From positions 8,033-72,032 of the forward strand of contig DAOLCO010000013.1 in assembly GCA_035327825.1 (NCBI GenBank): DNA of 64,000 bases. The letters run 5' to 3'. The stretch comes from Oligoflexia bacterium (GTDB lineage: Bacteria; Bdellovibrionota_C; UBA2361; SZUA-149; DAOLCO01). The position numbers and the translations under genes are program-made. The notes under the pieces are model-generated. The model was not told the origin of the DNA. It did no database searches and saw nothing but the letters and a program-made list of their open reading frames with translations. Numbering within the stretch: the first letter of the stretch is position 1; each line of letters opens with the position of its first letter. Of the stretch, positions 20,467-43,429 are shown piece after piece.

Positions 20467-20650
20467 CTGGCCCGCATTATTCATGTGACTCCGTCACGAG
20501 AGAGGTGAGTATTTGAGTTTGCATGTGCTTTATGGATTTTTTGGGACAATAGTGTGCCGAGGCACATAGAGGTCGAAAAAAAGTGCAAAGTGCCAGAAAA
20601 ATTAAGCAATCGCCTCTCGCAGTAGGTGGATCATGAATATTGCAGGCTAT
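20467..20650 (-). mobile_element. MITE-like element A, copy 1 (184 bp, terminal inverted repeats)
   Basis: About 85-90% identical by hand alignment to the reverse complement of 41121-41304. Ends are CTGGCCCGCATTATTCATG ... CATGAATATTGCAGGCTAT. Internal palindrome TGTGCCGAGGCACA. No transposase. Confidence 0.75.
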
Positions 20651-27270: not shown

Positions 27271-28176
27271 ATGGCTCGGATTTTGATTACTGGATATTCG
27301 GGAATGCTTGGCAGAAGCGTAGCGGAAATATTTGCTTCTGATCCAGCCTACAAAGTAATCGGTTTATCTAGAAGCCCCATGGAATATTCAGATTTTGAAA
27401 ATGACATTGATAAGATAAGTTTTGATCTTACAAAAACTAGAGAAATTCCGGATTTGCTCGATAAAATCAGACCAGATGTTATAATTCATACTGCTGCAAT
27501 GGTAGATATTAAAGCCTGCCAAAATAAAAAGCACTACGCATATTTGCTTCATGCAGAAAGTGCCAGGGAGCTTGCAAATTTCAGCAGGAATATACGTTTC
27601 ATTTATATTTCAACAGATTCAGTGTTTGATGGCATTAGGGGAAATTACACAGAAGAGGATAATCCTAATCCTTTAAATGAGTACGCAAAGTCAAAATATA
27701 GGGGGGAATTAGAGACTTTGTCTGGGGGAAACAGTCTCGTACTTAGGACTAATATTTATGGCTTTCATCGACCAGTAGTTAATTCTTCGATTGCAGAATG
27801 GGCATTAAGCAAATTTAAAGCTGGTGAGAAGATCAGGGGGTTTGGTAATATTTGTTTCAATCCTCTCTATACAGTTCAGCTTGCAGAAATAATAAAAGTC
27901 ATTTCAGAGTCTCAACACTGTGGTATATTGCATTTGGGTTCCGATACTTGTCTTAGTAAATATGATTTTCTGAAGTTGCTGGCAGAACAGTTTGATTATG
28001 ATACTGCTCTGCTGGAGGAAGGAGTATTTGTGCAAGATAGTGAATCTGTTAAAAGACCTGAAAATACTACCCTTAATACAGGAAAGTATCAGGAGACATT
28101 TTTAGCCATTGCTCCAAGTCTACATAAGGGAATAGAACGTTTGTGGAAAGATTTTGATAGTGAGAAAAGGAAATAA
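27271..28176 (+). CDS. NAD(P)-dependent sugar nucleotide reductase/epimerase (RmlD-like SDR)
   Basis: ILITGYSGMLG Rossmann motif and YAKSKYRGE (YxxxK). Length and pattern match the dTDP-4-dehydrorhamnose reductase family. Confidence 0.7.
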   Translation: MARILITGYSGMLGRSVAEIFASDPAYKVIGLSRSPMEYSDFENDIDKISFDLTKTREIPDLLDKIRPDVIIHTAAMVDIKACQNKKHYAYLLHAESARELANFSRNIRFIYISTDSVFDGIRGNYTEEDNPNPLNEYAKSKYRGELETLSGGNSLVLRTNIYGFHRPVVNSSIAEWALSKFKAGEKIRGFGNICFNPLYTVQLAEIIKVISESQHCGILHLGSDTCLSKYDFLKLLAEQFDYDTALLEEGVFVQDSESVKRPENTTLNTGKYQETFLAIAPSLHKGIERLWKDFDSEKRK

Positions 28177-28177
28177 T

Positions 28178-29239
28178 ATGCAGATTGGTAATATAGAGCT
28201 CTCTAAAAATGGCCCGCTTTACTTTGTAGCAGATATTGGTGCTAACCATGATGGTTCACTTGATAGGGCTTTTAAGCTTATAGAGCTTGCCAAAAATGCA
28301 GGTGCTCATGCTGCAAAATTTCAAAATTTCCAGGCTGACAAAATAGTAAGTAGTGAAGGATTTAGCAGTCTTGGCGGACAATTGACCCATCAAGCCAAAT
28401 GGAAAAAGTCTGTTTATGAAACATACATGAGCGCAAGTATTCCAATGGACTGGACAGTAAAATTAAAAGAAAAGTGCGAGGAAGTGGGTATTGAATATTT
28501 TACGAGTCCTTATGATTTTGAATCTGTAGATGCAGTAGATCCGTATGTAAGAGTTTACAAGATTGGATCCGGGGATATTACTTGGATTCAGATTGTAAGG
28601 CATATTGCCAAAAAGAATAAGCCAATACTACTTGCGACAGGAGCTTCTTCGATGGATGATGTTAGGCGGGCAATGAACGAAATCATGGAAGTGAACCCGC
28701 AGGTAGTTTTGATGCAGTGCAATACAAATTATACTGGGAGTCCCGATAATTTTAACTATGTTAATCTGAACGTAATTCGCACTTTTGAAATGGAGTATCC
28801 CGATACCATTCTTGGATTGTCCGATCATACCTCTGGACATGCAGCTATTCTTGGGGCTATTGCTCTTGGTGCAAGAGTGTTTGAAAAGCATTTTACAGAT
28901 GACAATTCACGAGAAGGGCCTGATCATGCATTTGCAATGAATCCAGATACCTGGAAAGAAATGGTTGAAAGGTCTTGTGAATTATATTCTGCCCTTGGAG
29001 ATGGTATTAAGCGAATAGAAAAAAACGAAACAGAATCAGCAATTGTTCAAAGAAGATCAATCAGAGTCAGTAGGGATCTTCCTGAGGGGCATAGTCTTTC
29101 AAGTGATGATCTGGAAGTGCTGAGACCAATTCCCGAAGGGGGTCTTCCACCTTATCTTTTTGAAGAAGTTGTGGGAAAAAAACTTTTAAATCCGGTAAAA
29201 AAAGGGCAGCACTTGTCGCATGCTGATATACTGAAATGA
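28178..29239 (+). CDS. pseI: NeuB-family nonulosonic acid synthase (pseudaminic acid synthase type inferred from context)
   Basis: FVADIGANHDGSLDRAFKLIELAKNAGAHAAKFQ, DFESVD, KIGSGD and LSDHT motifs, plus a C-terminal SAF domain. I chose the ATG at 28178, preceded by AAGGAA. Pse versus Leg/Neu specificity cannot be read from the sequence alone. Confidence 0.7.
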   Translation: MQIGNIELSKNGPLYFVADIGANHDGSLDRAFKLIELAKNAGAHAAKFQNFQADKIVSSEGFSSLGGQLTHQAKWKKSVYETYMSASIPMDWTVKLKEKCEEVGIEYFTSPYDFESVDAVDPYVRVYKIGSGDITWIQIVRHIAKKNKPILLATGASSMDDVRRAMNEIMEVNPQVVLMQCNTNYTGSPDNFNYVNLNVIRTFEMEYPDTILGLSDHTSGHAAILGAIALGARVFEKHFTDDNSREGPDHAFAMNPDTWKEMVERSCELYSALGDGIKRIEKNETESAIVQRRSIRVSRDLPEGHSLSSDDLEVLRPIPEGGLPPYLFEEVVGKKLLNPVKKGQHLSHADILK

Positions 29240-29775
29240 TAGCTGGTAAAATAACAGGACTTAGGGCTGTAGAAGAGAATGATCTTGAGGTTCTTAAAAC
29301 ATGGCGCAATAATCAGGATTTCAGGAGAAATTTCAGGGAAGTGAGAGAGTTAAATTCCTATAATCAAAAGTGCTGGTTCGAGAAAACTTGTTTAAGTCCA
29401 AATGATTTCATGTTTGTAATAGTAAGACTTGAAGATTCCCTACCAATTGGTGCTTGCGGACTTTTATATACAAACTGGATTCTCCGATCCAGTGATTTGT
29501 CCTTTTATATAGGGCATGAAAATGCCTACATAGATGATAAGGGTTTTGCTGAAGAAGCATGTCAACTTTTGCTTGAATATGGTTTTGGTAATCTTAATCT
29601 AAACAAGGTTTGGATGGAATTGTACGAATTCGACCAAAAGAAGCTGGATTTCTTTACTGGTAAGTTTAATTTTAAAAAAGACGGAAAGCTTCGTGAGAAT
29701 TGTTATGAGGATGGCAGATACTGGGATTCATATATTCTATCTCTCTTAAGGAAGGAGCATAAAGGTCGTGTCTAA
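29236..29775 (+). CDS. GNAT N-acetyltransferase (PseH-like)
   Basis: ATGA overlap with the upstream gene. LKTWRNNQDFRRNF and a GNAT core (IGACGL...KGFAEEACQLLLEYGF). Size and placement match PseH. Confidence 0.6.
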   Translation: MIAGKITGLRAVEENDLEVLKTWRNNQDFRRNFREVRELNSYNQKCWFEKTCLSPNDFMFVIVRLEDSLPIGACGLLYTNWILRSSDLSFYIGHENAYIDDKGFAEEACQLLLEYGFGNLNLNKVWMELYEFDQKKLDFFTGKFNFKKDGKLRENCYEDGRYWDSYILSLLRKEHKGRV

Positions 29776-30463
29776 GGTCGCTATCATTACAGCAAGAAAG
29801 GGCAGCAAACGAATACCCAATAAAAATATCAAGATGTTTCTTGGGAGCCCAATTATAAAATATTCAATTACTGCAGCAATTGAATCAGGGGTATTTGATG
29901 AGGTGATGGTGTCAACTGATGATGAAGGAATTGCTACAATTGCAAAATCTTATGGAGCGAAGGTTCCATTTATGCGCTCGGAAAAAAATTCTAATGATTT
30001 TGCAGGAACCGCAGATGTACTTATTGAGGTAATTGAATCTTATGCAAGTATGGGAATTCGCCACGAAAGTTTGTGTGGGATATATCCAACTGCTCCATTT
30101 ATAACTCCTCAAAAACTGGTTGCTGGTATGAATTTGCTACAAGAGAGTCATGCGGATGTTGTACTTCCAGTAGTTCGTTTTAGTTATCCAATTCAGCGTA
30201 GTCTTAAAAGAATTGAGGAAAGAGTAGAAATGTTTTGGCCTGAAAATTATCATGCAAGATCGCAGGATCTGGAGCCAGCTTATCATGATGCGGGCCAGTT
30301 TTACTGTATTAAAGTTAATAGTCTTATGAAAGAACGTAAGCTGTTTATGTCTGATACCAGACCACTTGTGATGTCTGAACTGGAGGTTCAGGATATCGAT
30401 AACGAAGATGATTGGAAACTTGCAGAGATAAAATATTCGTTTCTCCACCATGGCAGAATATAA
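29768..30463 (+). CDS. pseF: CMP-nonulosonic acid cytidylyltransferase (PseF/NeuA family)
   Basis: AIITARKGSKRIPNKNIK, STDD, RSQDLEPAYHDAGQFY. GTG start overlapping the upstream gene by 8 nt. Confidence 0.7.
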   Translation: MSKVAIITARKGSKRIPNKNIKMFLGSPIIKYSITAAIESGVFDEVMVSTDDEGIATIAKSYGAKVPFMRSEKNSNDFAGTADVLIEVIESYASMGIRHESLCGIYPTAPFITPQKLVAGMNLLQESHADVVLPVVRFSYPIQRSLKRIEERVEMFWPENYHARSQDLEPAYHDAGQFYCIKVNSLMKERKLFMSDTRPLVMSELEVQDIDNEDDWKLAEIKYSFLHHGRI

Positions 30464-30477
30464 CTTGAGGAAATCCT

Positions 30478-31443
30478 TTGAAAAAGGCACTGATAATCGG
30501 ATGTGGAAGAATTGGGGCTCAGTGTGACATTCTGGGTGATGTCGGAAGTTCCTGTCCTCATGCCTATTCCCATGCAAAGGCACTATCTGATACCGGGGCT
30601 TTCGATTTATATTTTTATGACCTTGATACTGAAAGATCACTAATCGCTGCAAGTTATTTCCGTGGAACTATGCTTGAATCCTTGAATGATGGTGTTTTAC
30701 TTAAGCCTGACTGGTTAAGTATTGCTTCTCCAACAGAAAGCCATGTAGATATATATAAACTTTTTGCTGGATCCGTACCTATTGTGCTTATGGAAAAGCC
30801 AATTAGTTATGATGAATCTGATTTGAGAATTGCGATTGATATTTATAAAAGATCTGGCCAGAAGACTTATGTTAATTACTTTAGGAATTTTTTACCACAA
30901 TATGCACGATTGAAAGCCTTGATCCAAGAACTGGAATTAAATGATCCGTTTAAGGAAATACAAATTACCTACCATAGAGGATTGATTAATAATGGAAGTC
31001 ATGCCCTTTCCTGTGCTTCATATCTACTAAACCATATTGTCTGTATATCTGATCAGAGAGTATTCTCAGTAAAGGGATTTAACCAAATCGTATGTGATCC
31101 TAGTATATCTTTTTCATTTAGAGATAGGGAAAGAGATTTTATATTTGCTGGTTTGGATGAAAAGGATTATCCGATTCTTGAACTTAAACTTTATTCAAGA
31201 ACTCATGTCGTAAAAATTACAGATTCTGGGGATACTCTCCAGGTTTTTAGAAAAACATCAAACGACATACATGGAATACTAATGGAAAGCGTGTTTTATG
31301 AAAATAGGGTTTTGGAAAATTGCATTGGTAAGGCGGTAAATGCGATACTTGAAGATGCTGATACATGCAGACTGGCAGAAAACTTTATTGAATCTTGCGA
31401 ACTCAATCAGGAGCTTCTTAGGGTATGTCTCAACTTGCAATAA
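30478..31443 (+). CDS. Gfo/Idh/MocA-like NAD(P)-dependent oxidoreductase
   Basis: N-terminal MKKALIIGCGRIGAQ Rossmann motif and an EKP motif (LMEKPIS). TTG start. Confidence 0.55.
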   Translation: MKKALIIGCGRIGAQCDILGDVGSSCPHAYSHAKALSDTGAFDLYFYDLDTERSLIAASYFRGTMLESLNDGVLLKPDWLSIASPTESHVDIYKLFAGSVPIVLMEKPISYDESDLRIAIDIYKRSGQKTYVNYFRNFLPQYARLKALIQELELNDPFKEIQITYHRGLINNGSHALSCASYLLNHIVCISDQRVFSVKGFNQIVCDPSISFSFRDRERDFIFAGLDEKDYPILELKLYSRTHVVKITDSGDTLQVFRKTSNDIHGILMESVFYENRVLENCIGKAVNAILEDADTCRLAENFIESCELNQELLRVCLNLQ

Positions 31444-32717
31444 AAGGTGGTAATCCTGTTCGTACCAGGCTTTTCCCTTCCTATAATACAATTGGCGAAG
31501 AGGAGAAGCTTGCCGTGCTTGAGGTGCTCGAGAGCGGAAATTTATCGCAGTTTCTTGGAGCATGGAGTTCTGACTTTCTTGGAGGCCCGCAAGTTAAAAA
31601 ATTAGAATCCAAATGGTGTGATCATTTTGGTGTGGCACATGCTGTTACGGTAAATTCTAATACATCCGGCCTATATACTGCTATGGGTGCAATTGGGATC
31701 CAGCCTGGAGATGAGGTTATTGTTACGCCATATTCTATGTCTGCAAGCGCAATAGCTCCTCTGATGTACGGAGGAGTTCCGGTTTTTGCTGATATTGATC
31801 CTGTAACTTTCTGTCTTGATCCTGATAGTGTCAGAAGTAAAATTTCATCTAAAACAAGGGCAATTCTGGTAGTGCATCTCTTTGGTCATCCCGCAGAGAT
31901 GGGGAAGATCATGGAGATAGCAAATGAATTCAATCTATTTGTAGTTGAAGATGCTGCTCAAGCTCCACTTGGTATTTATAAGGGAAGGCCTGTTGGTACT
32001 ATCGGTGACATCGGTGTTTTTAGCCTGAATTATCATAAGCATATACACACTGGAGAGGGCGGTGTTATAGTTTCCAATAATAAAGAATTGGCAGAAAGGT
32101 GTCAGTTGATTCGTAATCATGCCGAAAATATTGTTGAGCATAAAAAACTTGAGCACCTGACAAATATGATAGGTGCTAATTATAGAATGACTGAAATTGA
32201 GGCTTCAATTGGAATTTCCCAGCTTGATAAACTTCAAGGGTTGCTTGAACAGCGAATTGCTAATGTGAACTACTTTAATGATAAGCTTAAAAGCTTTGAT
32301 ACTTTTGAGGTGCAACCATTTACGGATAAAACTTCAAGGCATTGCTATTATCAGTGTCCTGTTAAGTTTAATCCATTAAGAGCCGGATGCAGTAGAAATG
32401 CATTTGTTAATGCAGTTAAATCAGAGATACCCTCGGCGGTTTTGAGAGAAAGCGCTCCTTTAATAAGCGCAGGATATGTTCGTCCTTTATATCTTCTGCC
32501 TATTTTTCAGAATAAAAATGCCTTTGCCTATAGAGCTGGTTATGCAAGAAATGATATTTCCTATGATCGGGGGATTTGTCCTGTAGTGGAGAAGATGCAT
32601 TATGAAAATCTTTTCACACATGAATTTATGAGACCAGGTATGACAAAAGATGATATGGACGACGTTATAAGGGCATTTGACAAAGTACTTTCGCATTCAA
32701 GTGAGTTAAGTGATTGA
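31425..32717 (+). CDS. DegT/DnrJ/EryC1/StrS-family PLP-dependent sugar aminotransferase (PseC-like role inferred)
   Basis: LESKWCDHFGVAHAVTVNSNTSGL, DAAQA, and SLNYHKHIHTGEGG (PLP lysine). At 430 aa it is longer than typical PseC. Confidence 0.75.
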   Translation: MSQLAIKGGNPVRTRLFPSYNTIGEEEKLAVLEVLESGNLSQFLGAWSSDFLGGPQVKKLESKWCDHFGVAHAVTVNSNTSGLYTAMGAIGIQPGDEVIVTPYSMSASAIAPLMYGGVPVFADIDPVTFCLDPDSVRSKISSKTRAILVVHLFGHPAEMGKIMEIANEFNLFVVEDAAQAPLGIYKGRPVGTIGDIGVFSLNYHKHIHTGEGGVIVSNNKELAERCQLIRNHAENIVEHKKLEHLTNMIGANYRMTEIEASIGISQLDKLQGLLEQRIANVNYFNDKLKSFDTFEVQPFTDKTSRHCYYQCPVKFNPLRAGCSRNAFVNAVKSEIPSAVLRESAPLISAGYVRPLYLLPIFQNKNAFAYRAGYARNDISYDRGICPVVEKMHYENLFTHEFMRPGMTKDDMDDVIRAFDKVLSHSSELSD

Positions 32718-32731
32718 TTTGGAGTAATAAA

Positions 32732-33346
32732 ATGAGCAATGAACAAATTGAATTCTGGACCAGGGATTATACTGAGGAATATCTTGAAAGGAACTCGGTT
32801 TTTGACTTTGATCTAGGTGTTAAGGGTTGGAAGCAGATAACCAGTAAAATTGAAACGCCAAAAAAAATACTTGAATGTGGATGTAATATTGGAAGGAATA
32901 TAAATTTTCTTAATTCGGTGTTCCCGAATGCAACAAAGTCCATAATTGAAGTTGCAAAGCAGCCGTTTGATATTGTGACTTCAAAATACTCTTTTGAATT
33001 GGCTCAGAATGCATCAATTATTGACTCAGATTTGCCGCAAACTTATTTTGATCTTGTATTTACACATTCGGTATTGATTCATATCAATCCCGAGGAGCTA
33101 GTAACAAATATGAAAAAGATATACGATTATAGCTCAAGATATATAATTCTTTGTGAATATTTTAATAGAACTCCTGTGATGATTGAGTATCGAAATCAGT
33201 TAAACAAATTATTTAAATCAGATTTTGGAAAGACATTTATAACAAATTTTGAAGTGAGCCTTGTCGACTACGGTTTTCTCTGGGGTCACGTTTATGATCC
33301 GGCCGGGTTTGATGATATTACTTATTGGGTGTTTGAGAAGAAATAG
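32732..33346 (+). CDS. Pseudaminic-acid-biosynthesis-associated SAM methyltransferase family
   Basis: ATG at 32732 preceded by GGAG. EQIEFWTRDYTEEYLERN at the N-terminus and ILECGCNIGRN (motif I). The pattern recalls the Pse-associated methylase family. Confidence 0.55.
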   Translation: MSNEQIEFWTRDYTEEYLERNSVFDFDLGVKGWKQITSKIETPKKILECGCNIGRNINFLNSVFPNATKSIIEVAKQPFDIVTSKYSFELAQNASIIDSDLPQTYFDLVFTHSVLIHINPEELVTNMKKIYDYSSRYIILCEYFNRTPVMIEYRNQLNKLFKSDFGKTFITNFEVSLVDYGFLWGHVYDPAGFDDITYWVFEKK

Positions 33347-33367
33347 AAGAAAAGTATATTTCGAATT

Positions 33368-34702
33368 TTATACAAATAACTTTTCGACCCTGTCTGCAAA
33401 GTCAAGTAAGGAAAAATCATCAAATTTCTTTGCTACTATTTGAAGACCATATGGCAGATTAAGTTCAGGATTGAAAAATAATGGGATGTTTATGGCGGGA
33501 TAGCCAAAAAAGGTCCATATCAGGCATGTATCGGGCTGTTCCCACTCTCCAATTAATGGGGCCGCTGTCGCAGTTGAAGGTGTAATAAGAAAGTCATATT
33601 TTTCAAATGCTAAATCAAAGTCTTTTCTGAGAACTGGCTGCTTTTTTGAGGCTTCAATATATTCTTTCTCACTGTGCTTTTCCCCGCGTCTTATCATTGC
33701 AGTCATTACTTCACTTACATGATCATGCTGTCTCATCTCATTTTTAAAATAATAGGACAGGGACTTTGCGTACATCAATTCATGTATAGCGTGTATGCTA
33801 TTAATGAATGAAACATTACTTAGATACTGAGCATTAAAATTTTTGGAGATTTTGCCTGCTACTTCATTAAAATCATTTTTTACATAGTCAGAATAGGATG
33901 AGAAGCCTTGAAAGCAATCAGTTACAAAACCTACTTTAAGATCAGTGGTGTTTTTTCGTTTGTAGGAATTAAAAAATGAAAAGTAATTATTTGAGTAGGG
34001 ATAATCTTTCCCTTTTGTAAGGCAAGCTAACAACATTTTAGCAAGTCCCTTTGAATCTGAGCCAAGAAATCCAATAGTGTCAAAAGTATCGTTGGTTTTT
34101 AAAACACCAGTTCGGTCAATTGCACCAAAAGATGGTTTAAAGCCATATACACCACAAAAACTTGCTGGTCTTATAATAGAACCTGCTGTTTGTGTGCCAA
34201 GTGCAACAGGAAGTGCGCCACAGGCTACTGCAACTGCGGATCCTGAAGAGGAAGTGCCTGTTATATGGTTTTTGTTGTAGGGGTTAAGAGTTTTTTCTGG
34301 CGATATGAAATGTACCGCAAACTCGGCTGTTGTTGTTTTTGAAAAAACTATACCACCATTATTTATTATCTGGTCGACAATTCTTGCATTGTTTCCAGCT
34401 CTAAAACCCTTCCAAAGCTCACTTCCCATTGATGTTGGAAGGACCCTTGTATTAAAAACATCCTTAATACCAATTGGCAGGGCCCTTAGTGGGCAACTGG
34501 ATTCGCCAAAGTCTCTTCTTAGTTGCTGAAATACATACTCCTCATCAAAGTATTCTGTGAATTTGAATTCAGCATCAAGAGCTTTGTAGCGTGTTATGAA
34601 ATCCTTATAAAAAGAAATAAGATGATCTGTGGATTTGAGTAATGCAATCTTCTTCTCAAAACTGGATAATAGATTCTCAGTGTTTTTTATTAACCGTATC
34701 AC
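33368..34702 (-). CDS. Amidase-signature (AS) family amidase (GatA-like fold)
   Basis: GIKDVF (catalytic Lys) and the AS stretch GTSSSGSAVAVACGALPVALGTQTAGSIIRPASFCGVYGFKPSFG. Confidence 0.8.
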   Translation of the reverse strand: MIRLIKNTENLLSSFEKKIALLKSTDHLISFYKDFITRYKALDAEFKFTEYFDEEYVFQQLRRDFGESSCPLRALPIGIKDVFNTRVLPTSMGSELWKGFRAGNNARIVDQIINNGGIVFSKTTTAEFAVHFISPEKTLNPYNKNHITGTSSSGSAVAVACGALPVALGTQTAGSIIRPASFCGVYGFKPSFGAIDRTGVLKTNDTFDTIGFLGSDSKGLAKMLLACLTKGKDYPYSNNYFSFFNSYKRKNTTDLKVGFVTDCFQGFSSYSDYVKNDFNEVAGKISKNFNAQYLSNVSFINSIHAIHELMYAKSLSYYFKNEMRQHDHVSEVMTAMIRRGEKHSEKEYIEASKKQPVLRKDFDLAFEKYDFLITPSTATAAPLIGEWEQPDTCLIWTFFGYPAINIPLFFNPELNLPYGLQIVAKKFDDFSLLDFADRVEKLFV

Positions 34703-34704
34703 AA

Positions 34705-36519
34705 TCAGGTCCTTTTAAGCTTACTTGCGTCTTTACTTATACTTCTTGCTTCTACAAGGATTTTCTCAAACTCCTCTTCGCTGTAACCCGTTATAGACAG
34801 ATAGAAGTCAAGTGCATGTGGTCGTTGGCTATCGAATTCCTTGGAAAGCTCCATGCCCTCTTCTCTTGTAATTAGTCCTCTTCTAACATCATCAGAGGCA
34901 TGAACTGTGGATCTGCCAACGCCACGTTTGATGAAGTTTGCGTAATCATGGACGCCGGCCATAACACATTCAGTGCTTTTATAGCCTTTGTAAGTGTTCT
35001 CAACCTGGGAATCTCTCCATTCAAAATGCTCAACTATAAAATCTACATGCCGTTCTTCATCCCAGAACATGTAGTCCCCTAGGTGCAGGTACCTCAAATG
35101 GGATCTGGAGATGATATCTCTGGAAGGGTAGAACCAGTGAGAAAGATCATTGTACGGGATCTTATTGTCTGAAAAATCTTCAGCTTTAACTCGAGCGGAA
35201 ACCTCAAGGTTATAATATACATTTGCCTCCTTTCTTTGGGCATAAGAACCTCTGCCATCGCGCTCCGCAATTGATTCGCCCCAAATCATTAACCCAACAT
35301 TCCAATAGTAACCAGATTGAATGGTGAATGTCCCTGAGCCAACATGGCAATGCCAACATGCATCGCCTATAGCAGAAAGCGATTTTCTTGCAGACTTGTT
35401 TATTACAGATCGATTAGCATGAAACATTATATGGTCAAGATCAAATTGTTGAAGGCAATTCTCTAGATTGTATCTGCCAGTTAATGACATCCAGTTTGCT
35501 CCATGAGTAACGGCAAGAGGATTAATGTCAAAGCGGTGATGTAATATGTAAGCTTGAAAAGTGCTATCCTTACCGCCACTCATTGGGAGCATGCAATCAT
35601 AGTAGTTGTCACTTCTGTGAGAATCAAGGATTGATCTTAGTTCAAGATCACGTTCTTCCCAGTTTATATGCATTTTTTCTTCAGATGAGCGACAGGGAGT
35701 ACATATTCCAAATTCATCAAAAGTAATCCCCTCCATGGTTTCAGGAAGGCAGCATCGATTGCAATATCTAAGCTCGTTTTCGTACAATGCATGACCCCAC
35801 TCCGAATCCTTGACCATTTTATTCCATCTGGTCTCTGGATATTTTTTATCCCAGGGGACCTCCTTGTACTTGGGATCAAATCCCACCCAGTAAAGGTTTT
35901 TTTCAAGCTCGCTTATTTGTGGTTCATAATCAAAGAAGTCAGTTTTTTCATTTCCAGAATCAAGAAGGTATTTTTCAGAAATAATACACTTTTTCCCTTC
36001 AAGTTGATTTCGCAAGAGACGAAGCGAAGTAAGGCTGCAGAAGACTTTTTCAATTGAGGAGTTTTTAACCTTGTTCGGAAGTTTTGCGATTAGCTCATCA
36101 AGTCTGAGTATCGTCTCATCAAATATACTTGTTGCCTCATATTCTAAATCAAATCTGTTACTGAGAATATAGTTCGAAATATAAGCAGTTCTTATGTCGT
36201 ATCTTGAAAGACACTGAAGGGTAAAGACAAGTTGGGAAAGCTTTTGAAAATCAAACAGGTTAACGGCATCATTTGTTCTTAAAATACTGTTCGCACTTGG
36301 TCTAAGGGTAAACATCAGGTGATTTAGATCAAAATGATCTATTAAACCCTTGATATAATTCTTTTCTCGAACATTAAAGAATCTGTGATCAAAAGTAACT
36401 GATAAAATTCGTGATGTCGGATTCTGGTTCTTTAGTTCGGAAAGCAGATAGAACAAATCAGAATCAGCGTCCAGGGACAGCGCAATATCGAACTCAAAAG
36501 AATTAAATGATCTGTCCAT
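34705..36519 (-). CDS. N-acetyl sugar amidotransferase (PP-loop ATP pyrophosphatase; PseA/WbpG-like) with an extra degenerate N-terminal PP-loop-like domain
   Basis: Zn-ribbon CNRCCLPETMEGITFDEFGICTPC at about aa 250, followed by the PP-loop PMSGGKDST. The N-terminal ~120 aa parallel the catalytic domain (SVTFDHRFF..FDLNHLMFTLRPS vs AVTHGANWM..FDLDHIMFHANRS), but SGGKDS is replaced by SLDADSD. Confidence 0.75.
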   Translation of the reverse strand: MDRSFNSFEFDIALSLDADSDLFYLLSELKNQNPTSRILSVTFDHRFFNVREKNYIKGLIDHFDLNHLMFTLRPSANSILRTNDAVNLFDFQKLSQLVFTLQCLSRYDIRTAYISNYILSNRFDLEYEATSIFDETILRLDELIAKLPNKVKNSSIEKVFCSLTSLRLLRNQLEGKKCIISEKYLLDSGNEKTDFFDYEPQISELEKNLYWVGFDPKYKEVPWDKKYPETRWNKMVKDSEWGHALYENELRYCNRCCLPETMEGITFDEFGICTPCRSSEEKMHINWEERDLELRSILDSHRSDNYYDCMLPMSGGKDSTFQAYILHHRFDINPLAVTHGANWMSLTGRYNLENCLQQFDLDHIMFHANRSVINKSARKSLSAIGDACWHCHVGSGTFTIQSGYYWNVGLMIWGESIAERDGRGSYAQRKEANVYYNLEVSARVKAEDFSDNKIPYNDLSHWFYPSRDIISRSHLRYLHLGDYMFWDEERHVDFIVEHFEWRDSQVENTYKGYKSTECVMAGVHDYANFIKRGVGRSTVHASDDVRRGLITREEGMELSKEFDSQRPHALDFYLSITGYSEEEFEKILVEARSISKDASKLKRT

Positions 36520-36567
36520 AATTAATCCTGATAACCTTTGGTGTTAAAGTATATAAGTAAAAACCTG

Positions 36568-37332
36568 CTACAAAACTGCATATGATATTTTTGTATCAAA
36601 TGAAAACCTTTCAATCTGGATAGTTTTAAGATCAATTGAGTCGATAACAGCGAGTGTTTCGCCGGGCAAGCCCCGATCATTTAGTTCATCAAAGACAATT
36701 ACAGACCCTTTGGGCATGCGAGGAAGAAATGTATCAAGCGCGGCCTTTGTTGGCTCATACAGATTTACATCAAGATATAACAGGCTAACAATTGTCTCAG
36801 GGTTTGATTTCAGATACTCAGGTGCAGTATCTTTTACGTTTCCTTTGACCAGAATTACTTTTTCCTGCGAACCAAGAAAGCGATTCTTGTCAAATATGCG
36901 AATAGACTCTTTTATGTCATCAAATGAGTTTAGGGACATTTTGCCCTCTTCGTACATCTTTACATTTATTCCGGTATGATCTTCGGGACCAATTTGAGGT
37001 TTGTCTCCGAACATGTCAAAACCGATTATCTTTCGTTGATGATTCAGATGTTCAAAAATTGCACTGAATTGGGCCCATGCCATCAGGCTTGCACCATCAA
37101 GAACCCCTATTTCAACAATTGAACCTTGCATGGGCAGAATTTTTTTGAATATTTCATAACGAACAAGAAATCTTGTTATTGATTGTCTAGGGACGTATTT
37201 AGTGAAACTTTGAAGTTTCCAAACATTTGAACCTTCACTTTCAGAATAATATTTCTCTAGCTCCTCTCGATATTCCTTTGGGAGAAATGAAGCATAGTCA
37301 TAAACGTCCTGTAAAGGATGTTGATCTTTCAT
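36568..37332 (-). CDS. Class I SAM-dependent O-methyltransferase (TylF/Methyltransf_24-like)
   Basis: IVEIGVLDGASLMAWAQ (motif I), LLYLDVNLYEPT and SVIVFDELN. 4-nt overlap with the ACP gene. Confidence 0.65.
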   Translation of the reverse strand: MKDQHPLQDVYDYASFLPKEYREELEKYYSESEGSNVWKLQSFTKYVPRQSITRFLVRYEIFKKILPMQGSIVEIGVLDGASLMAWAQFSAIFEHLNHQRKIIGFDMFGDKPQIGPEDHTGINVKMYEEGKMSLNSFDDIKESIRIFDKNRFLGSQEKVILVKGNVKDTAPEYLKSNPETIVSLLYLDVNLYEPTKAALDTFLPRMPKGSVIVFDELNDRGLPGETLAVIDSIDLKTIQIERFSFDTKISYAVL

Positions 37333-37568
37333 TGTTTGCTTCCTCCTGTTCTTTCAGCCGTAATTAGACATATCAAATCAATTGTAAGCATTTCACCGAT
37401 TTCCTCATCGGTAAAACGAATTTCGAATTCCTCTTCTAGGGCGTTTACAAGATTCATGTGATTGAGAGAGTCCCATGTGTCAATTGAATCAGGGGAACAG
37501 GATCCGGAAATTTCATCAATTGGTACTGCAAAAACAATTGACGCAATTTTTCTAATCTTATCATTCAT
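37329..37568 (-). CDS. Acyl carrier protein
   Basis: 79 aa, with the phosphopantetheine attachment motif DTWDSLNHMNLV. Overlaps both neighbouring genes. Confidence 0.8.
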   Translation of the reverse strand: MNDKIRKIASIVFAVPIDEISGSCSPDSIDTWDSLNHMNLVNALEEEFEIRFTDEEIGEMLTIDLICLITAERTGGSKQ

Positions 37569-39282
37569 ATTCTACCATTATATAATCAAGATGTCTCGGT
37601 TTATATTCTTTTAGGCTGATCTGGTATAAAGTTGATTGACTCTTTGATCCATTGTTTGAAAATCCAAGATTGTCATAAAAGTTTTCTACCTGACTATTTT
37701 TTTTTGTGGGAATATATTCAGCAAGCAGGTTGGAAATTCCAAGTTTTGAAATATCTTCAATGACAGAGTCAAAGAAGGCGAATTCAAAATTACGACCTAT
37801 AACACGGCAGCTCATCAGGAAAGTATCAATTTGAGCAATGTTGCTATCAATTTTTATCAATGAAAGCCCGGTTATACCTGAACTACCAAGACGATCTCCG
37901 GATTCAAAGGCATACATCAGCCATTCACTGCTGTATAACATTGTAGTTAGTTCTGCTTCAGTATAGCGTCGTGTAGTAAGATTGAATTGATTTGTCTTTT
38001 GGGTCAGCTGGGCCATTCTTGGCAATATATCCGGTTTGTTTTTGTAGAAACGTATTCGAAGTTCTAATGATCTGAGAAAACTCTCAATTGACTCGAAAGA
38101 TGATTTGAGATCTTTTCTTTTTGCTTCTTCCAGGTAGAATTTGGAACGTAAGAGATCTTCTTCTGTCCCGTTTGTAGAGAAAAAATCACATGATAATTTG
38201 GTCATAAATTGCGGATATTTACTGAGATCTTTTGGAACTAGCGCCACTGTAACGTCCTCAAGTACGCTTTTTACCCGATTAATTTCAAATTCAGAATCAT
38301 CAACAAAAACAATGCTATCGAGTCCAATATTAAGCTCATCTGCAATCTGGCTGATATTTTTGGCTTTATCGTCCCAGTTGATCTTTTTTATAACAAAGTC
38401 ATCATATGTTAAAGGCATCTCCAGTTTTGAAAAAATCTCCTCAACATCCGAACTATTATTTTTTGAACAGAGACATAGAAGAACTCCTGAATTTTTCAGC
38501 TTCAAGATGAAATTTTGAACTTCTTTAAAAATTCTGCCGGTTGAATCTTCCCCACTTATTTTAATTCCACTAATTCCATCTTCGCCTGCTATCCCACCCC
38601 AGATAGTATTGTCACAGTCCAGAATTAGCGCTTTTTTTGCCAGTCCAAGTGAGGCTTTTAAAATTGGACGGATGTGCTCAGCATATTCTTTGTAAAACCT
38701 TGAAGAATAGAGAATCTTTGAAGAATAATAGTCCCTCGTGTTGAATGATTCATTAACTGATATTTGGGATATTATCTTGTCAAGATCAACCAGTGAAAAA
38801 TTATCAGGTTTTCGTTCTCTTATATAGGAGTTCAAAAGGGTGCCAATTTCTTCTGCCTTTGTTCTTGCAGGTATGTGAGCTGTAAATAACATTGCTGAAA
38901 ACTGATTCATGATAACCAGCTTTGAGCTCCTAAGTGTATCAAAGAGATGATCTATCCAGGATTTTACTCTAAGGATAAGTGCTTCAGACTCTGAGTTGCT
39001 TAAAAGTTCTATTCGATGCTGGAAGCCATCAATGATATTTGTTAATTCCCAGAATATTATCAGGCATGATTTGTCTTTGTAAATCTCGGCATCTTGAAGT
39101 ATGGTGTCGTAGTTTGCACTTATTGCCTTGGCATTTACCCCTAAGTTTCTCAACTCAAATTCAATATAGGGTTCAATCTGACTAATTGTAATATTGGAAA
39201 GAAGAGCAATAGTATAAGGCTCTTTTTCCTTAAGAGATGATTCCAATTCCCGGTTTTTTTCTAGTAATTCCGTAAGCTTCAT
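37561..39282 (-). CDS. FkbH-like HAD-superfamily (subfamily IIIC) protein with a C-terminal GNAT-like domain
   Basis: HAD motif I LILDCDNTIWGG, then LCSKNN and FVDDSEFE. The C-terminal third (FLMSCRVIGRNFEFAFF...) is as in FkbH-like enzymes. Confidence 0.75.
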   Translation of the reverse strand: MKLTELLEKNRELESSLKEKEPYTIALLSNITISQIEPYIEFELRNLGVNAKAISANYDTILQDAEIYKDKSCLIIFWELTNIIDGFQHRIELLSNSESEALILRVKSWIDHLFDTLRSSKLVIMNQFSAMLFTAHIPARTKAEEIGTLLNSYIRERKPDNFSLVDLDKIISQISVNESFNTRDYYSSKILYSSRFYKEYAEHIRPILKASLGLAKKALILDCDNTIWGGIAGEDGISGIKISGEDSTGRIFKEVQNFILKLKNSGVLLCLCSKNNSSDVEEIFSKLEMPLTYDDFVIKKINWDDKAKNISQIADELNIGLDSIVFVDDSEFEINRVKSVLEDVTVALVPKDLSKYPQFMTKLSCDFFSTNGTEEDLLRSKFYLEEAKRKDLKSSFESIESFLRSLELRIRFYKNKPDILPRMAQLTQKTNQFNLTTRRYTEAELTTMLYSSEWLMYAFESGDRLGSSGITGLSLIKIDSNIAQIDTFLMSCRVIGRNFEFAFFDSVIEDISKLGISNLLAEYIPTKKNSQVENFYDNLGFSNNGSKSQSTLYQISLKEYKPRHLDYIMVEYE

Positions 39283-39288
39283 TTATTG

Positions 39289-40479
39289 TTAAACCATCGA
39301 AAAACCGCCATTAACCCTGATCGTTTCACCTGTAATAAAACTGCTTTGAGTTCCAAGAAATGTGATTACTTTGGCAATATCCTGCGGTGAGGCAAGCCTT
39401 TTTAATGGGGTTTTTGCCGCCATTAGGAGTCTGTATTTTTCAGGTATGTCAGCAATGAGGTCAGTGTCTGTCATTCCAGGTGATACAATATTTACTTCGA
39501 TATTAAATGGAGCACATTCAATTGCCAGTGATTTTGCAAGTCCAATCAGGGCGTGTTTGCCAGTTACATAATGAAGTAGATTTGCAGGGGGAGCTGAGTC
39601 TGTATAGGCAGTAGAGAGAAATATAATTTTTCCATTTTTTCGCTCTTTCATTCGGGGAAGAAGATGCTTCATGAGCATAAAATTTGATTTAATATTTACG
39701 TCAAGCTGTTTTGAAATATCGTTCCAGTCCAGCGATTTTAATTCTATGGCGTGAATGCTTGTAGTTGAGCAGTTCGCAAATAGAGTAATGGGCCCTAGTC
39801 TTGTTTCTACTTCGTTAAGAAGAGTTTCTAGAGAGGATTCGTCCAGTAGGTCTGCCTGGAGCATCATTCCTGTTTTGGAAGAGTTTTTGATTTGGGATAA
39901 TATCTTTTCTGCTTTTTCCCTGTTTTTATTGTAGTGTATTGCTACATCGTAGCCAGCTTCTGAAAGCATTATGGCAGTAGCAGAACCTATCCCCCCGGAG
40001 CCGCCTAGAACGAGAGCTACCTTTTTTGGAGGGGTTAGGTCGGAGAGCAAGTTATTTTCTGAAACTGCTTCTTCTATGACTTGAACCCTTGATTTTCCGG
40101 TAATGACCTTTTGCTTGTGCTGATTAAAAATCTCTGTTTCCAGCTCAATTATTTTATTTCTTTCATCCCTTGAAATCACTTTGGCATTAACCAGTATTGT
40201 GTCATCAATGCGAACGGGCAGAATAAATTCAAGGCTCTGGGAAAGCCATAATGCTCCGTCTCCTGGTATTTTGGTTCCAATAATTGTTGATATAAAGGAA
40301 GCACTTAACATGCCGTGAGCTACTGGTTTCTTAAAAGAAGTTCGGCTTGCAAAATCCTTGTCAGTGTGAATTTTATTGTCATCTCCGGTCAGATCTATGA
40401 ATCGGTCAATATCTTTTTCCGTTATAGTGTGACTGATTTGGGCTGTATCTCCAGTCTTGATTTCATCAAATCTGCTCAT
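39289..40479 (-). CDS. MaoC-like (hotdog) dehydratase fused to a short-chain dehydrogenase/reductase (FabG-like)
   Basis: N-terminal hotdog domain (FIDLTGDDNKIHTDKDFA...VAHGML). C-terminal SDR domain (LVLGGSGGIGSATA; YVTGKHAL = YxxxK; ITGETIRVNGG). Confidence 0.75.
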   Translation of the reverse strand: MSRFDEIKTGDTAQISHTITEKDIDRFIDLTGDDNKIHTDKDFASRTSFKKPVAHGMLSASFISTIIGTKIPGDGALWLSQSLEFILPVRIDDTILVNAKVISRDERNKIIELETEIFNQHKQKVITGKSRVQVIEEAVSENNLLSDLTPPKKVALVLGGSGGIGSATAIMLSEAGYDVAIHYNKNREKAEKILSQIKNSSKTGMMLQADLLDESSLETLLNEVETRLGPITLFANCSTTSIHAIELKSLDWNDISKQLDVNIKSNFMLMKHLLPRMKERKNGKIIFLSTAYTDSAPPANLLHYVTGKHALIGLAKSLAIECAPFNIEVNIVSPGMTDTDLIADIPEKYRLLMAAKTPLKRLASPQDIAKVITFLGTQSSFITGETIRVNGGFSMV

Positions 40480-40482
40480 GCT

Positions 40483-41052
40483 TTACTCACTTAAAATAAA
40501 TTCATCACTTAAAATGCTATATCGATAGGAGTCGTGATATGAGCCATTTTTAAAAATATCCATTCTTGATATTCCTTCTTCTTTGCAGCCAAGTGAGCGA
40601 CACATCAGTGTTACCAGTTCCTTTGACAAGCTGCCGCCATAAATTTTGTTCATATTTAAGGTTTTAAACGCATGTTTGAAAATAAGTCTGGCTGATTCCA
40701 GAAAAATTGAAATATTTCTGCCCTCTTTTTCTCCAATTACAATCGAGAATTCGCATTTTCTGTTAATATAATCAATTGCGTTAAGACTTACTATCCCAAG
40801 AAGGTTGTCGTTTCCGGTTTTGCATATTCCAAGTTGGAGTTTGTCTTTTGCGTCCTGTATATTGGATTCCCAGAATTTCAACTGGGACTCAACAGTGTTT
40901 GGAAAATAGTGTTTCTGTAAAGTTTTGCAGATTTCTTCATCGTTGAACCAGCCATACCATGGGCCATGCAGGACGTCTTCCCTTGTAAGAACGCGAAGGT
41001 CAACCACTTTTCCCCTAATGAATATATTGCGTGAATCAGGCTGGTTTTTCAT
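40483..41052 (-). CDS. GNAT-family N-acyltransferase (RimJ/RimL-like)
   Basis: LRVLTREDV...WFND, and a GNAT core (IGEKEGRNISIFLESARLIFKHAFKTLNMNKIY). Confidence 0.7.
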   Translation of the reverse strand: MKNQPDSRNIFIRGKVVDLRVLTREDVLHGPWYGWFNDEEICKTLQKHYFPNTVESQLKFWESNIQDAKDKLQLGICKTGNDNLLGIVSLNAIDYINRKCEFSIVIGEKEGRNISIFLESARLIFKHAFKTLNMNKIYGGSLSKELVTLMCRSLGCKEEGISRMDIFKNGSYHDSYRYSILSDEFILSE

Positions 41053-41120
41053 ATACTATTTAGATGCAGTTATTAACTTAAAGCATTTAAGATTAGGGGG
41101 TGAGAACTTTTTGTAAGGAC

Positions 41121-41304
41121 CTAGCCCGCATTATTCATGATCCACCTACTGCGAGAGGCGATTGCTTAATTTTTCTGGCACTTTGCACCTTTTTTCGACC
41201 TCAATGTGCCTCGGCACACTGTCGACCGAAAAAAAGCACAAAGCACCAGCAAAATCAAACACTCACCTCTCTCGTGACTGAGTCTCATGAATAACGCGGG
41301 CTAG
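41121..41304 (+). mobile_element. MITE-like element A, copy 2 (184 bp, 20-bp terminal inverted repeats)
   Basis: CTAGCCCGCATTATTCATGA (41121-41140) versus the reverse complement of TCATGAATAACGCGGGCTAG (41285-41304) matches at 19 of 20 positions. It sits between two co-directional genes of the minus-strand sugar operon. Confidence 0.8.
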
Positions 41305-41376
41305 CAGTGCCATATTATCATGTTGCTGATATTAATGCTTTTATTTGTTTTATTTGAAGCTACAACGCTAGATTAG

Positions 41377-42387
41377 TCAGGAATTAAAAAAACATGCCAT
41401 GCTTTCCTCGTTGACAAGCGTTCCTATTTCTTTGTCTTTTAGTGGGTCATTTTCCCTGTTTACTATATATCTCAAAACCTGAGGCCCTATAATTGTCGCT
41501 TCAGTTAGAATATTAGAAAAAAACCCAAGAACAATATCACAGTAATGAACCAGAGGAATCAGATCCATTCCTGAAGGTAGTACCGTTACTGGAGTATTAT
41601 TTAAGCAAGAAAGTAAAAGTGGAAGATTCTGATTTGGATGTGGAGCGAGTACAAAGTGGTGTGTTTCTGAGTATTGATTAAAAAGAGGTAGAAAAGATTT
41701 TGTTGCTGTGAATTCGTCAAATCCTGATTTAACTTTAAGTCCACTTATATTAGAAATGGGATCTGGCGCATAAAGCACAATTTTTCGATTATCCAGGGGG
41801 ATGCCGTATTCAAGTAAAACTTCAATTTTACTTTTGTGTGGGTGCCATTTTTTTGCTTTAAGAGATTCAAGATATGGATTCGGGAATATTTTCAGTTGCT
41901 CTTCACTTACTCCTTCGTATATTGCGGCATTAAATATATCATTGTCAGATACGAGAATGTAATCAGGATAAATGTATTCTCCTTCAAGTAAAAATCTGTT
42001 TTTAATTTCCATGCTATGATCTACAAATGAATAGGTAGGTACTCCAAGAGATTTAGCCTCCCTGACAAACTGACGTTCCAATGTTGATTTATAAGATGTG
42101 CCCGTAAATACAAAATCAGGCTTGAAGTTTAGAATCTCCATTTTGAATATGGAAGGAGGTTTTACCGGGTTGATTTTAAATATTTTGAGGAATGCATATT
42201 CACGATCAGAAAAAACACGAAATTCATTAAGGTAGTTTGAGAGTTCGAGCGCTAATGAGCAAACAGGCTTTGCTCCTCCTGGGTCGCTATATATAAAAAT
42301 CCCACGATTTTTATATAAAGTTTCAATTTTAAAACTGTTATCTTTTATGATTGGTTGACTGATGTTGTTTAGATATTCTCTAGGCAC
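41377..42387 (-). CDS. GT-B-fold-like protein of unknown function (possible PseG-type nucleotide-sugar hydrolase/transferase)
   Basis: Overlaps the pseB stop by 8 nt. Two Rossmann-like halves can be guessed (IFIYSDPGGAKPVCSLALEL...; IVLYAPDP...VLAPHPNQ...). The canonical PseG GxGH motif is absent. Confidence 0.3.
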   Translation of the reverse strand: MPREYLNNISQPIIKDNSFKIETLYKNRGIFIYSDPGGAKPVCSLALELSNYLNEFRVFSDREYAFLKIFKINPVKPPSIFKMEILNFKPDFVFTGTSYKSTLERQFVREAKSLGVPTYSFVDHSMEIKNRFLLEGEYIYPDYILVSDNDIFNAAIYEGVSEEQLKIFPNPYLESLKAKKWHPHKSKIEVLLEYGIPLDNRKIVLYAPDPISNISGLKVKSGFDEFTATKSFLPLFNQYSETHHFVLAPHPNQNLPLLLSCLNNTPVTVLPSGMDLIPLVHYCDIVLGFFSNILTEATIIGPQVLRYIVNRENDPLKDKEIGTLVNEESMACFFNS

Positions 42388-43429
42388 AAGAGCGCTCTTT
42401 CTCTAGGCAGTATTGCTTGATTAGATTTCTAAGACTATCAACGGTCTCCCATTGTGTATTGTTATCAGATCGGTAGTTAAAGCCCTCAGGTACTTTTTTT
42501 GCTTCGAATGAGCTTATATGATCTGAAAATTTTCTATCATTTCCGCCCGGATAGATTATGTAATAGTTTCCGAAGTCATATGTGTTAAATGAATCAGAAG
42601 GCGAAATCATTTCTTCATGAATTTTTTCGCCTGGTCTGGTTCCAATTACAGGCTTTTCGCACTCCGGACCAATGGCTTCTGCAACATCAAGAATTTTGTA
42701 TGACGGTATTTTTGGTACAAATAGTTCTCCACCGAGAGCCTGTTCCAATGCAAGAAGTACCATTTTTACTCCAGCCGTTAGAGTAATATTGAACCTTGTC
42801 ATTTGAGAGTTTGTAATAGGAAGTATTCCTTCTTTTTTTTTCTTTAGGAAAAAGGGTATTACTGAGCCATTTGAACCCAGGACATTTCCGTATCTGACTA
42901 CTGAAAATCGAACCTGTTCCTTCCCCTTAAATGTATTGGCGGCAATAAAAAGTTTATCGGAGGCAAGTTTAGTTGCGCCATATAAATTTACCGGTGAGCA
43001 TGCTTTGTCTGTTGAAAGTGCAACAACTCTGCTGACTTTCGCGGATAGTGCAGAGTGTATTACATTCTCTGCTCCGCCAATATTCGTTTTTACACATTCA
43101 TCAGGATTGTATTCTGCAATATGAACATGTTTCATGGCTGCTGCATGAATTACAAAATCAATATTATTAAAGGCTCTTTTTAGACGATCCCGATCCCTTA
43201 CGTCGCCAATGAAAAATCTTATTTGAGGAAACTTTTCAGAGGGATAAATCTGAGACATTTCAAACTGCTTCTGTTCGTCTCTTGAGAAGATTACAAGTCG
43301 TTTGATGGTCGGGCAGTTTTTAAGCAGGTATTCTGTTAGTGCCTTTCCGAAGGAACCAGTTCCGCCAGTTATTAGAATAGACTTTTCATGAAGAAAAGAG
43401 TGATCAATTTTAATTGACTCTGCGTCCAT
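42380..43429 (-). CDS. pseB: UDP-N-acetylglucosamine 4,6-dehydratase (inverting), PseB/FlaA1 family
   Basis: ILITGGTGSFGKAL, FSRDEQKQFEM, RFFIGDVRDRDRL, IHAAAMKHVHIAEYNPDECVKTNIGGAENV, and YGATKLASDKLF (YxxxK). Confidence 0.85.
   Translation of the reverse strand: MDAESIKIDHSFLHEKSILITGGTGSFGKALTEYLLKNCPTIKRLVIFSRDEQKQFEMSQIYPSEKFPQIRFFIGDVRDRDRLKRAFNNIDFVIHAAAMKHVHIAEYNPDECVKTNIGGAENVIHSALSAKVSRVVALSTDKACSPVNLYGATKLASDKLFIAANTFKGKEQVRFSVVRYGNVLGSNGSVIPFFLKKKKEGILPITNSQMTRFNITLTAGVKMVLLALEQALGGELFVPKIPSYKILDVAEAIGPECEKPVIGTRPGEKIHEEMISPSDSFNTYDFGNYYIIYPGGNDRKFSDHISSFEAKKVPEGFNYRSDNNTQWETVDSLRNLIKQYCLEKERSCA

Follow-up and report, generated by a model that had tools for sequence, protein, structure and literature searches.

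FkbH-type enzymes are established as loaders that convert 1,3-bisphosphoglycerate to a glyceryl thioester on a stand-alone acyl carrier protein (ACP; PMC7489565). Here we describe a cassette of five minus-strand genes, built around one such enzyme, at positions 36568-41052 of a 64,000-nt stretch of Oligoflexia bacterium contig DAOLCO010000013.1 (hereafter the window, meaning the whole stretch). The cassette lies in a locus for a pseudaminic acid (Pse)-type nonulosonic acid and has no ketosynthase (KS) beside it. The genes it contains, the intactness of their catalytic motifs and their close, repeated linkage in amino-sugar loci lead us to think it probable, if far from certain, that the five genes form a self-contained ACP-dependent acyl-donor cassette that decorates this sugar.

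Two nonulosonic acids with C3 hydroxy-acyl groups are the nearest described products. Campylobacter jejuni NCTC 11168 makes a Pse derivative with a 2,3-di-O-methylglyceroyl group in a cj1295-dependent manner (PMC3068675), and its locus includes the FkbH-domain gene cj1302 (PMC7099621). Tannerella makes Pse5Am7Gra, for which the glyceroyl gene has been called 'elusive' (PMC5378307, PMC6120980). In the literature found, genetic evidence for the cj1295-cj1304 block is restricted to cj1295, the genes behind glyceroyl-type groups are described as unknown, and FkbH-ACP genes have no experimental assignment to sugar N-acylation. A full-text literature search found nothing that ties FkbH, ACP or lactyl groups to the N-acylation of nonulosonic acids. 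A third parallel comes from the trans-acyltransferase polyketide synthases (PKSs), where the loading modules of FR901464 and bryostatin (BryA) reportedly use a dehydratase (DH), a ketoreductase (KR), an FkbH domain and an ACP to make lactyl-ACP from glycerate.

The five genes of the cassette are as follows.

36568-37332, minus strand: TylF/CalS11-family S-adenosylmethionine-dependent O-methyltransferase, 254 aa (Pfam TylF, E 3.4e-09; Methyltransf_24)

37329-37568, minus strand: dedicated ACP, 79 aa (PP-binding, E 0.005; DSL attachment motif)

37561-39282, minus strand: FkbH-type loader, 573 aa (TIGR01686, 275.2 bits against a cut-off of 146.65)

39289-40479, minus strand: fusion of MaoC and a FabG-like SDR, 396 aa (MaoC_dehydratas, E 2.1e-19; adh_short_C2, E 2.4e-44)

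40483-41052, minus strand: GNAT N-acyltransferase, 189 aa (Acetyltransf_3, PF13302, E 7.9e-08)

All five open reading frames (ORFs) lie exactly where a sequence-only reading of this DNA had placed them, and domain searches matched its family calls of GNAT, hotdog-dehydratase::SDR fusion, FkbH-like protein, 79-aa DSL-type ACP and TylF-like O-methyltransferase. Neighbouring ORFs overlap by 4 and 8 nt or are separated by gaps of 6 and 3 nt, and by this spacing they are packed as a putative translationally coupled string. The 8-nt overlap is that of the ACP gene with the stop of the loader.

The cassette resembles the FkbH/FkbJ systems (FK520 methoxymalonyl-ACP, zwittermicin ZmaN/ZmaD and the tetronate 'glycerate utilisation' genes) in having an above-cut-off FkbH domain with the same HAD motifs and Cys, followed by a stand-alone ACP, and in having an O-methyltransferase. 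It differs from them in the extra N-terminal domain of about 200 residues on its loader and in its consumer, a GNAT in a sugar locus rather than a PKS or nonribosomal peptide synthetase (NRPS). Neither an FkbI-type acyl-CoA dehydrogenase nor an FkbK-type 3-hydroxyacyl dehydrogenase is found among the annotated window ORFs; the sequence-only reading had likewise seen MaoC in place of FkbI, and a MaoC::FabG-like fusion is indeed present. The methyltransferase is TylF/CalS11-type, unlike FkbG, which we take to be of the Methyltransf_3 type. For want of FkbK and FkbI types and of a consumer, and with a methyltransferase of another class, we rejected a methoxymalonyl-ACP reading.

The parallel that the sequence-only reading drew with methoxymalonyl-ACP therefore holds for the shared FkbH, ACP and O-methyltransferase, but the lactate-starter modules are the closer match. 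As in those modules, a loader, a dehydratase, a ketoreductase and an ACP are all tightly linked, and lactyl-ACP is the predicted product. Because this DH-KR-FkbH-ACP logic is the closer parallel, a lactyl-type unit is more likely than a glyceroyl one. The window differs from the lactate-starter modules in that its proteins are free-standing, its DH is a MaoC/PhaJ hotdog, its KR is FabG-like and it has no KS; its product would also be methylated and then moved to an amine.

The TIGR01686 match covers residues 215-543 of the loader. In an alignment of 20 full-length homologues (43-47% identity), D222-x-D224-x-T226, S273, K306, D328-D329 and C492, which sits in an SCR motif, are invariant or nearly so. 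A second alignment included two FkbH sequences from secondary-metabolite contexts: a 359-aa protein that occupies the place of ZmaN in a zwittermicin-type NRPS/PKS cluster of a Bacillus thuringiensis plasmid, and the embedded FkbH domain of a Rhodococcus type I PKS. The same HAD motif residues and C492 were again invariant, with the exception of D328. The catalytic Cys and HAD residues, whose loss had been set beforehand as a possible refutation, are thus intact. We take C492 to be the counterpart of the acyl-carrying cysteine of OzmB. An AlphaFold (AF2) model of the loader (mean predicted confidence, pLDDT, 85.6) is tripartite, with an N-terminal domain followed by a HAD-IIIC phosphatase and then a GNAT-fold domain. 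Its N-terminal two-thirds superpose with a TM-score of 0.79 on PDB 3slr, the N-terminal part of Bacteroides fragilis BF1531, which includes a phosphatase domain. The C-terminal ~170 residues, which contain C492, match GNAT folds, and a Pfam search of the N-terminal 215 residues returned no family. The loader is a complete FkbH-type enzyme, and we propose that it would convert 1,3-bisphosphoglycerate to glyceryl-S-ACP. It is the only FkbH gene in the genome.

In the ACP, the phosphopantetheine Ser lies within the DSL motif at residues 33-35, and a single phosphopantetheinyl transferase gene is present elsewhere in the genome. The fusion protein carries MaoC_dehydratas at residues 13-115 and adh_short_C2 at residues 162-394, and its closest solved relatives are FabG (E 4e-37) and an (R)-specific enoyl-CoA hydratase (E 2.7e-26). 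Across 49 fusions, both the hydratase motif (GDxNxxH) and the two SDR motifs (GGIG, YxxxK) are kept. We propose that the fusion joins a PhaJ-type hotdog dehydratase to a FabG-like ketoreductase and would take glyceryl-ACP through pyruvoyl-ACP to lactyl-ACP. The closest solved relatives of the cassette GNAT are SpeG-type GNATs, and it shares only 22% identity with the second, PseH-like GNAT of the window. A GNAT occupies the equivalent position in five related loci (L003, L013, L117, L118 and L120). Because it is the sole GNAT within 7 kb in L117 and L118, the cassette GNAT fits the PseH step.

Together these assignments suggest a route from glycolysis to the sugar. The FkbH enzyme would take 1,3-bisphosphoglycerate, dephosphorylate it on the HAD domain and pass the glyceryl group by way of the conserved Cys to the 79-aa ACP. 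The MaoC half of the fusion would remove the 3-hydroxyl of glyceryl-ACP to give the enol of pyruvoyl-ACP, and the FabG-like half would use NADPH to reduce pyruvoyl-ACP to lactyl-ACP. The TylF-type methyltransferase would then act on the remaining 2-hydroxyl, giving 2-methoxypropanoyl-ACP. Acting in place of PseH, the GNAT would move this group, instead of acetyl, onto the 4-amino position of the UDP-sugar intermediate, which becomes N7 once the sugar is complete, and an adjacent amidotransferase-amidase pair would convert the other N-acetyl group to acetamidino. Each chemical step, the identity of the acyl group and the nitrogen acylated are inferred from sequence, and for the acyl group 2-methoxypropanoyl, rather than O-methylglyceroyl, is our tentative choice, held at somewhat below even confidence.

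To place the cassette among its relatives we turned to the loader. More than 7,900 metagenomic proteins of ~575 residues, from many phyla, match it at E <= 1e-10, and we annotated 82 FkbH loci from many phyla by searching them with the proteins of the window. FkbH is followed directly by an ACP gene in 72/82 loci and preceded directly by a MaoC::SDR fusion in 47. At least one recognisable amino-sugar gene is present in 57 loci, a candidate transferase (GNAT, hexapeptide-repeat LbH or WbqC) in 41, and a DegT aminotransferase in 43 of the 69 loci that have at least 3 kb on both sides. NeuB or PseF occurs within 10 kb in 11 loci, and a FabF/PKS-type ketosynthase within 10 kb in none. Seen from the other side, 251 Bacteroidota genomes hold three fusion homologues, each 9-25 nt upstream of an FkbH gene. 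Had the module been found elsewhere only with PKS/NRPS genes, the sequence-only reading would have had to be given up by its own account; it is found mostly in amino-sugar loci. These gene contexts argue that the unit is a general amino-sugar acylation cassette, neither bound to nonulosonic acids nor a fragment of a polyketide pathway. In an FkbH tree the window falls inside a clade of 39 sequences (SH-aLRT support 99), mostly from fusion-bearing cassettes. Cassette type is clustered in the tree yet has switched several times, and tree neighbours come from unrelated phyla, as expected of exchanged glycan genes.

The earlier statement that no ketosynthase is involved is correct for the window locus and its contig; the KS genes of this genome are on contigs C1, C50, C3, C11 and C36. 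It does not extend to all related cassettes, since a FabH-like ketosynthase III (KSIII) with an extra SDR is present in 23/82 loci. In this second cassette type the KSIII and extra SDR genes precede MaoC::SDR-FkbH-ACP, and a GNAT and a DegT aminotransferase are often present as well (L025, L027, L028, L033, L037, L044, L045, L048-L051, L053, L058, L066, L067, L069, L070, L075-L077 and L081). The KSIII could have a role in chain extension or as an acyltransferase.

The same module was found in other nonulosonic-acid loci, in Bacteroidota and in metagenome contigs.

L003 (a Chitinophagaceae metagenome-assembled genome): a five-gene set identical to that of the window, preceded by NeuB, cytidylyltransferase, GFO and DegT genes

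L013 (Sediminibacterium roseum): same set with no O-methyltransferase detected, beside NeuB, PseF and WbuX-type genes

L118: same set, then a short amidotransferase with HisH/HisF partners

L120: same set in slightly altered order, followed, like that of the window, by an amidotransferase (598 aa) and then an amidase

L117: same locus type without the MaoC::SDR gene

The co-occurrence with pse-type genes anticipated by the sequence-only reading is thus seen, as the same gene set recurs beside NeuB/PseF-type genes. With the residues intact and amino-sugar and NeuB/PseF-type contexts recurring, its central proposal, an O-methylated hydroxy-acyl group built on an ACP and N-acylated onto a nonulosonic acid, is the best reading of everything tested.

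In the window, the cassette is flanked by the following features.

27271-33346, plus strand: convergent sugar-locus arm with an RmlD-like reductase, NeuB/PseI-like synthase, PseH-like GNAT, PseF, GFO/IDH/MocA oxidoreductase, PseC-like aminotransferase and Pse-associated methylase

33368-34702, minus strand: amidase-signature enzyme (Pfam Amidase, E 5.3e-68)

34705-36519, minus strand: WbuX/PseA-type N-acetyl-sugar amidotransferase, 604 aa (TIGR03573, 298 bits against a cut-off of 203, residues 251-588)

41377-42387, minus strand: 336-aa protein without a clear family (weak match to the BFO_1060 glycosyltransferase family, E 5.3e-05)

42380-43429, minus strand: PseB, inverting UDP-GlcNAc 4,6-dehydratase (TIGR03589, 489 bits against a cut-off of 408)

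PseB heads the minus-strand gene string and is the first step of the sugar pathway. At the equivalog level PseB and PseF (291 bits against 206) pass and the PseC-, PseH- and PseI-like proteins fall short; the Pse-associated methylase scores 136 bits against 112, and the rest of the plus-strand arm is below equivalog cut-offs. No PseG was recognised at the sugar locus. The 336-aa protein is a candidate nonulosonic-acid transferase or PseG substitute. Its homologues, identified by similarity, are found upstream of the cassette next to a DegT gene, which they follow in L003, L006 and L013 and precede in L012. In L117 and L118 an unannotated gene of 318-325 aa corresponds to it in position only, with a faint Glyphos_transf match in L118.

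The amidase probably supplies ammonia to the amidotransferase, although it could be an N-deacetylase. An unusually long (598-aa) amidotransferase followed by an amidase is found beside the same cassette on an unrelated metagenome contig (L120:8160-11308). In L117 and L118 a ~380-aa protein with no family recorded occupies the amidotransferase position and has HisH/HisF-type partners instead, so the amidase looks like an alternative ammonia source.

FkbH homologues were found in 3/124 Bdellovibrionota genomes and in 0/5 genomes of the same family, and PseB was absent from a search of the four nearest genomes. The whole sugar locus (27271-43429) therefore appears to be accessory in this lineage. 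A genome of the same genus shares 65-73% DNA identity and is rearranged, too diverged to set island boundaries.

Like the C. jejuni cj1295-cj1304 region, the window has an FkbH-domain gene, an ACP, a methyltransferase and an N-acyltransferase near pseB/pseC, and the C. jejuni product matches the one proposed here in being a nonulosonic acid whose C3 hydroxy-acyl group is methylated. FkbH homologues were found in 19/201 Campylobacterales genomes. In L111, a locus of a complete Campylobacterales genome that has the C. jejuni gene order, the genes run PseB, PseC, DUF2172/DUF4910, Antibiotic_NAT, ACP, methyltransferase, FkbH, FabH-like, ACP and two DUF2920. Unlike the window, L111 has an Antibiotic_NAT-type transferase, a Methyltransf_11/12-type methyltransferase, a FabH-like KSIII, a second ACP and a DUF2172 peptidase-like protein, and it has no MaoC::SDR. 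This is consistent with retention of glyceroyl by cassettes that have no fusion. Two Campylobacterales loci with large FkbH ORFs were considered as fused DH-KR-FkbH modules and rejected; they encode NRPSs with an FkbH-like segment and no DH or KR. These NRPSs (L115:4133-17277 and L116:6061-11100) have condensation, adenylation and carrier domains, one with a thioesterase, and may point to glycerate-derived lipopeptide-type products in Campylobacterales. The resemblance to Pse5Am7Gra of Tannerella forsythia is in the product, as the proposed Pse-type sugar would also have one nitrogen bearing acetamidino and the second bearing a C3 hydroxy-acyl group; the weak match of the 336-aa protein to the BFO_1060 transferase family is a further link.

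Several points weigh against the route proposed here. We know of no nonulosonic acid reported with N-lactyl or 2-methoxypropanoyl. The dehydratase is a MaoC hotdog and not the PKS-type DH of the lactate-starter modules, so that analogy is a functional one only. ACP family scores are weak (PP-binding as above; NCBIfam ACP models down to 8.7e-07) and all below curated cut-offs. With no recognisable PseG and with extra redox enzymes, the sugar may not be Pse proper, and given the second, PseH-like GNAT and a possibly deacetylating amidase, acylation may instead be at N5. If glyceroyl were kept, the product would be O-methylglyceroyl, and the fusion would have some other role, for instance setting the stereochemistry at C2 through an oxidation-reduction cycle or acting on a different substrate. 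The nonulosonic-acid decorations of this kind that are known are based on glyceroyl, and the same methyltransferase orthologue is found in the fusion-free cassettes L117 and L119. However, the fusion is FkbH's most tightly linked partner (47/82 loci, and 3/3 from the fusion side), its dehydratase motif is strictly conserved and would remove the 3-hydroxyl of a 2,3-dihydroxyacyl thioester, and the Campylobacter-type locus tied to a glyceroyl product lacks it. We regard a retained glyceroyl as unlikely.

The target of the methyltransferase is a separate matter. Its closest solved relative is CalS11, a TDP-rhamnose 3'-O-methyltransferase (E 1.6e-31), and since CalS11 methylates a nucleotide sugar the window enzyme could act on the sugar rather than on the acyl group. 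The cassette would then make an unmethylated lactyl or glyceroyl group. The TylF/NovP family is generally sugar-acting, and a homologue of 54% identity is found in a sugar locus that has no FkbH cassette. Closer orthologues (61-77% identity) tell a different story, as 4/4 examined adjoin an FkbH cassette, three directly after the ACP and one after the fusion gene. By locus, the orthologue is directly after the ACP in L117, L118, L119 and L003 and after the MaoC::SDR gene in L120. Distant TylF-type genes (29-31% identity) also adjoin cassettes in L023, L026 and L032, in L023 between FkbH and ACP, and so appear to have been recruited beside cassettes at least three more times. Nucleotide-sugar methylation is a little less probable still than a retained glyceroyl. 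If the acyl group is the target, the 2-hydroxyl should be the position methylated, because the orthologue serves cassettes with the fusion (L118, L120, L003) and without it (L117, L119) and only the 2-hydroxyl is common to glyceryl and lactyl. We propose that the enzyme methylates this hydroxyl either while the acyl group is on the ACP or after its transfer. The acceptor, finally, could be something other than the nonulosonic acid, such as a different amino sugar of the glycan, an O-acyl position or a lipid, with the proximity to pse genes incidental. Only a small share of census loci have NeuB or PseF nearby, the cassette serves many amino-sugar pathways, and FkbH-ACP pairs are also found with MBOAT proteins. 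Yet here the cassette is within one gene string between PseB and a Pse-type amidotransferase, at least five other loci show this arrangement together with NeuB, cytidylyltransferase and DegT genes, and no second amino-sugar pathway was seen among the annotated window ORFs. Another acceptor is very improbable.

Cassette type may act as a code, in which FkbH-ACP alone would specify glyceroyl, the addition of MaoC::SDR lactyl, and the addition of the cassette-linked TylF-type enzyme the 2-O-methyl form. The window sugar would then be a Pse type not yet described, in which one nitrogen bears acetamidino and the other 2-methoxypropanoyl, with a calculated residue mass of ~359.17 Da. We offer this code as a conjecture, with slightly less confidence than the acyl identity itself. 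Mycobacterial glycolipids carry 2-methoxypropionamido and 2-hydroxypropanoylamido sugars; if true, the code would account for these as well as for the 'elusive' glyceroyl gene of Tannerella. N-acyl groups largely govern how phages, lectins and immune systems recognise the nonulosonic acids of flagella, S-layers, capsules and O-antigens. A conserved FkbH-ACP cassette would give a genetic handle for predicting N-acyl decorations from sequence and could explain rare N-acyl decorations on bacterial surface sugars. It would also mean that a polyketide-style starter-unit route is used alone for glycan tailoring.

Two FkbH-ACP pairs were considered as a link from gene to structure and set aside, as their contexts differ (MBOAT or VOC) and were of no help. 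On a Sinorhizobium meliloti megaplasmid (L095) the pair is beside an MBOAT protein and a gene annotated as a TonB-dependent receptor, with a VOC protein upstream, and on a Clostridium perfringens plasmid (L096) it is beside a nucleotidyltransferase and a VOC protein. These contexts suggest other uses of glyceryl-ACP, perhaps O-acylation of polymers. In Bacteroidota, L001:1049-13941 combines a MaoC::SDR-FkbH-ACP triad, a hexapeptide transferase, WbqC and a CmcI-type methyltransferase with genes for an NDP-3-C-methyl-4-amino-6-deoxyhexose, a set that would presumably suit a kansosamine-like sugar with a 2-methoxypropionamido group.

Promoter and terminator scans returned no more sites than shuffled sequence. 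No RNA datasets are listed with this stretch; only two DNA runs, both from one activated-sludge sample, contain it, and it may have come from that sample, the genome having been recovered from activated sludge. The 324-nt spacer between the 336-aa gene and the cassette GNAT gene holds a 184-bp element (41121-41304) with 20-nt terminal inverted repeats that are 95% complementary. A second copy is in the window at 20467-20650, and the genome has at least eight full-length copies (77-100% identity) as well as fragments. The element looks like a repeat of the miniature inverted-repeat transposable element (MITE) type that was inserted inside the operon.

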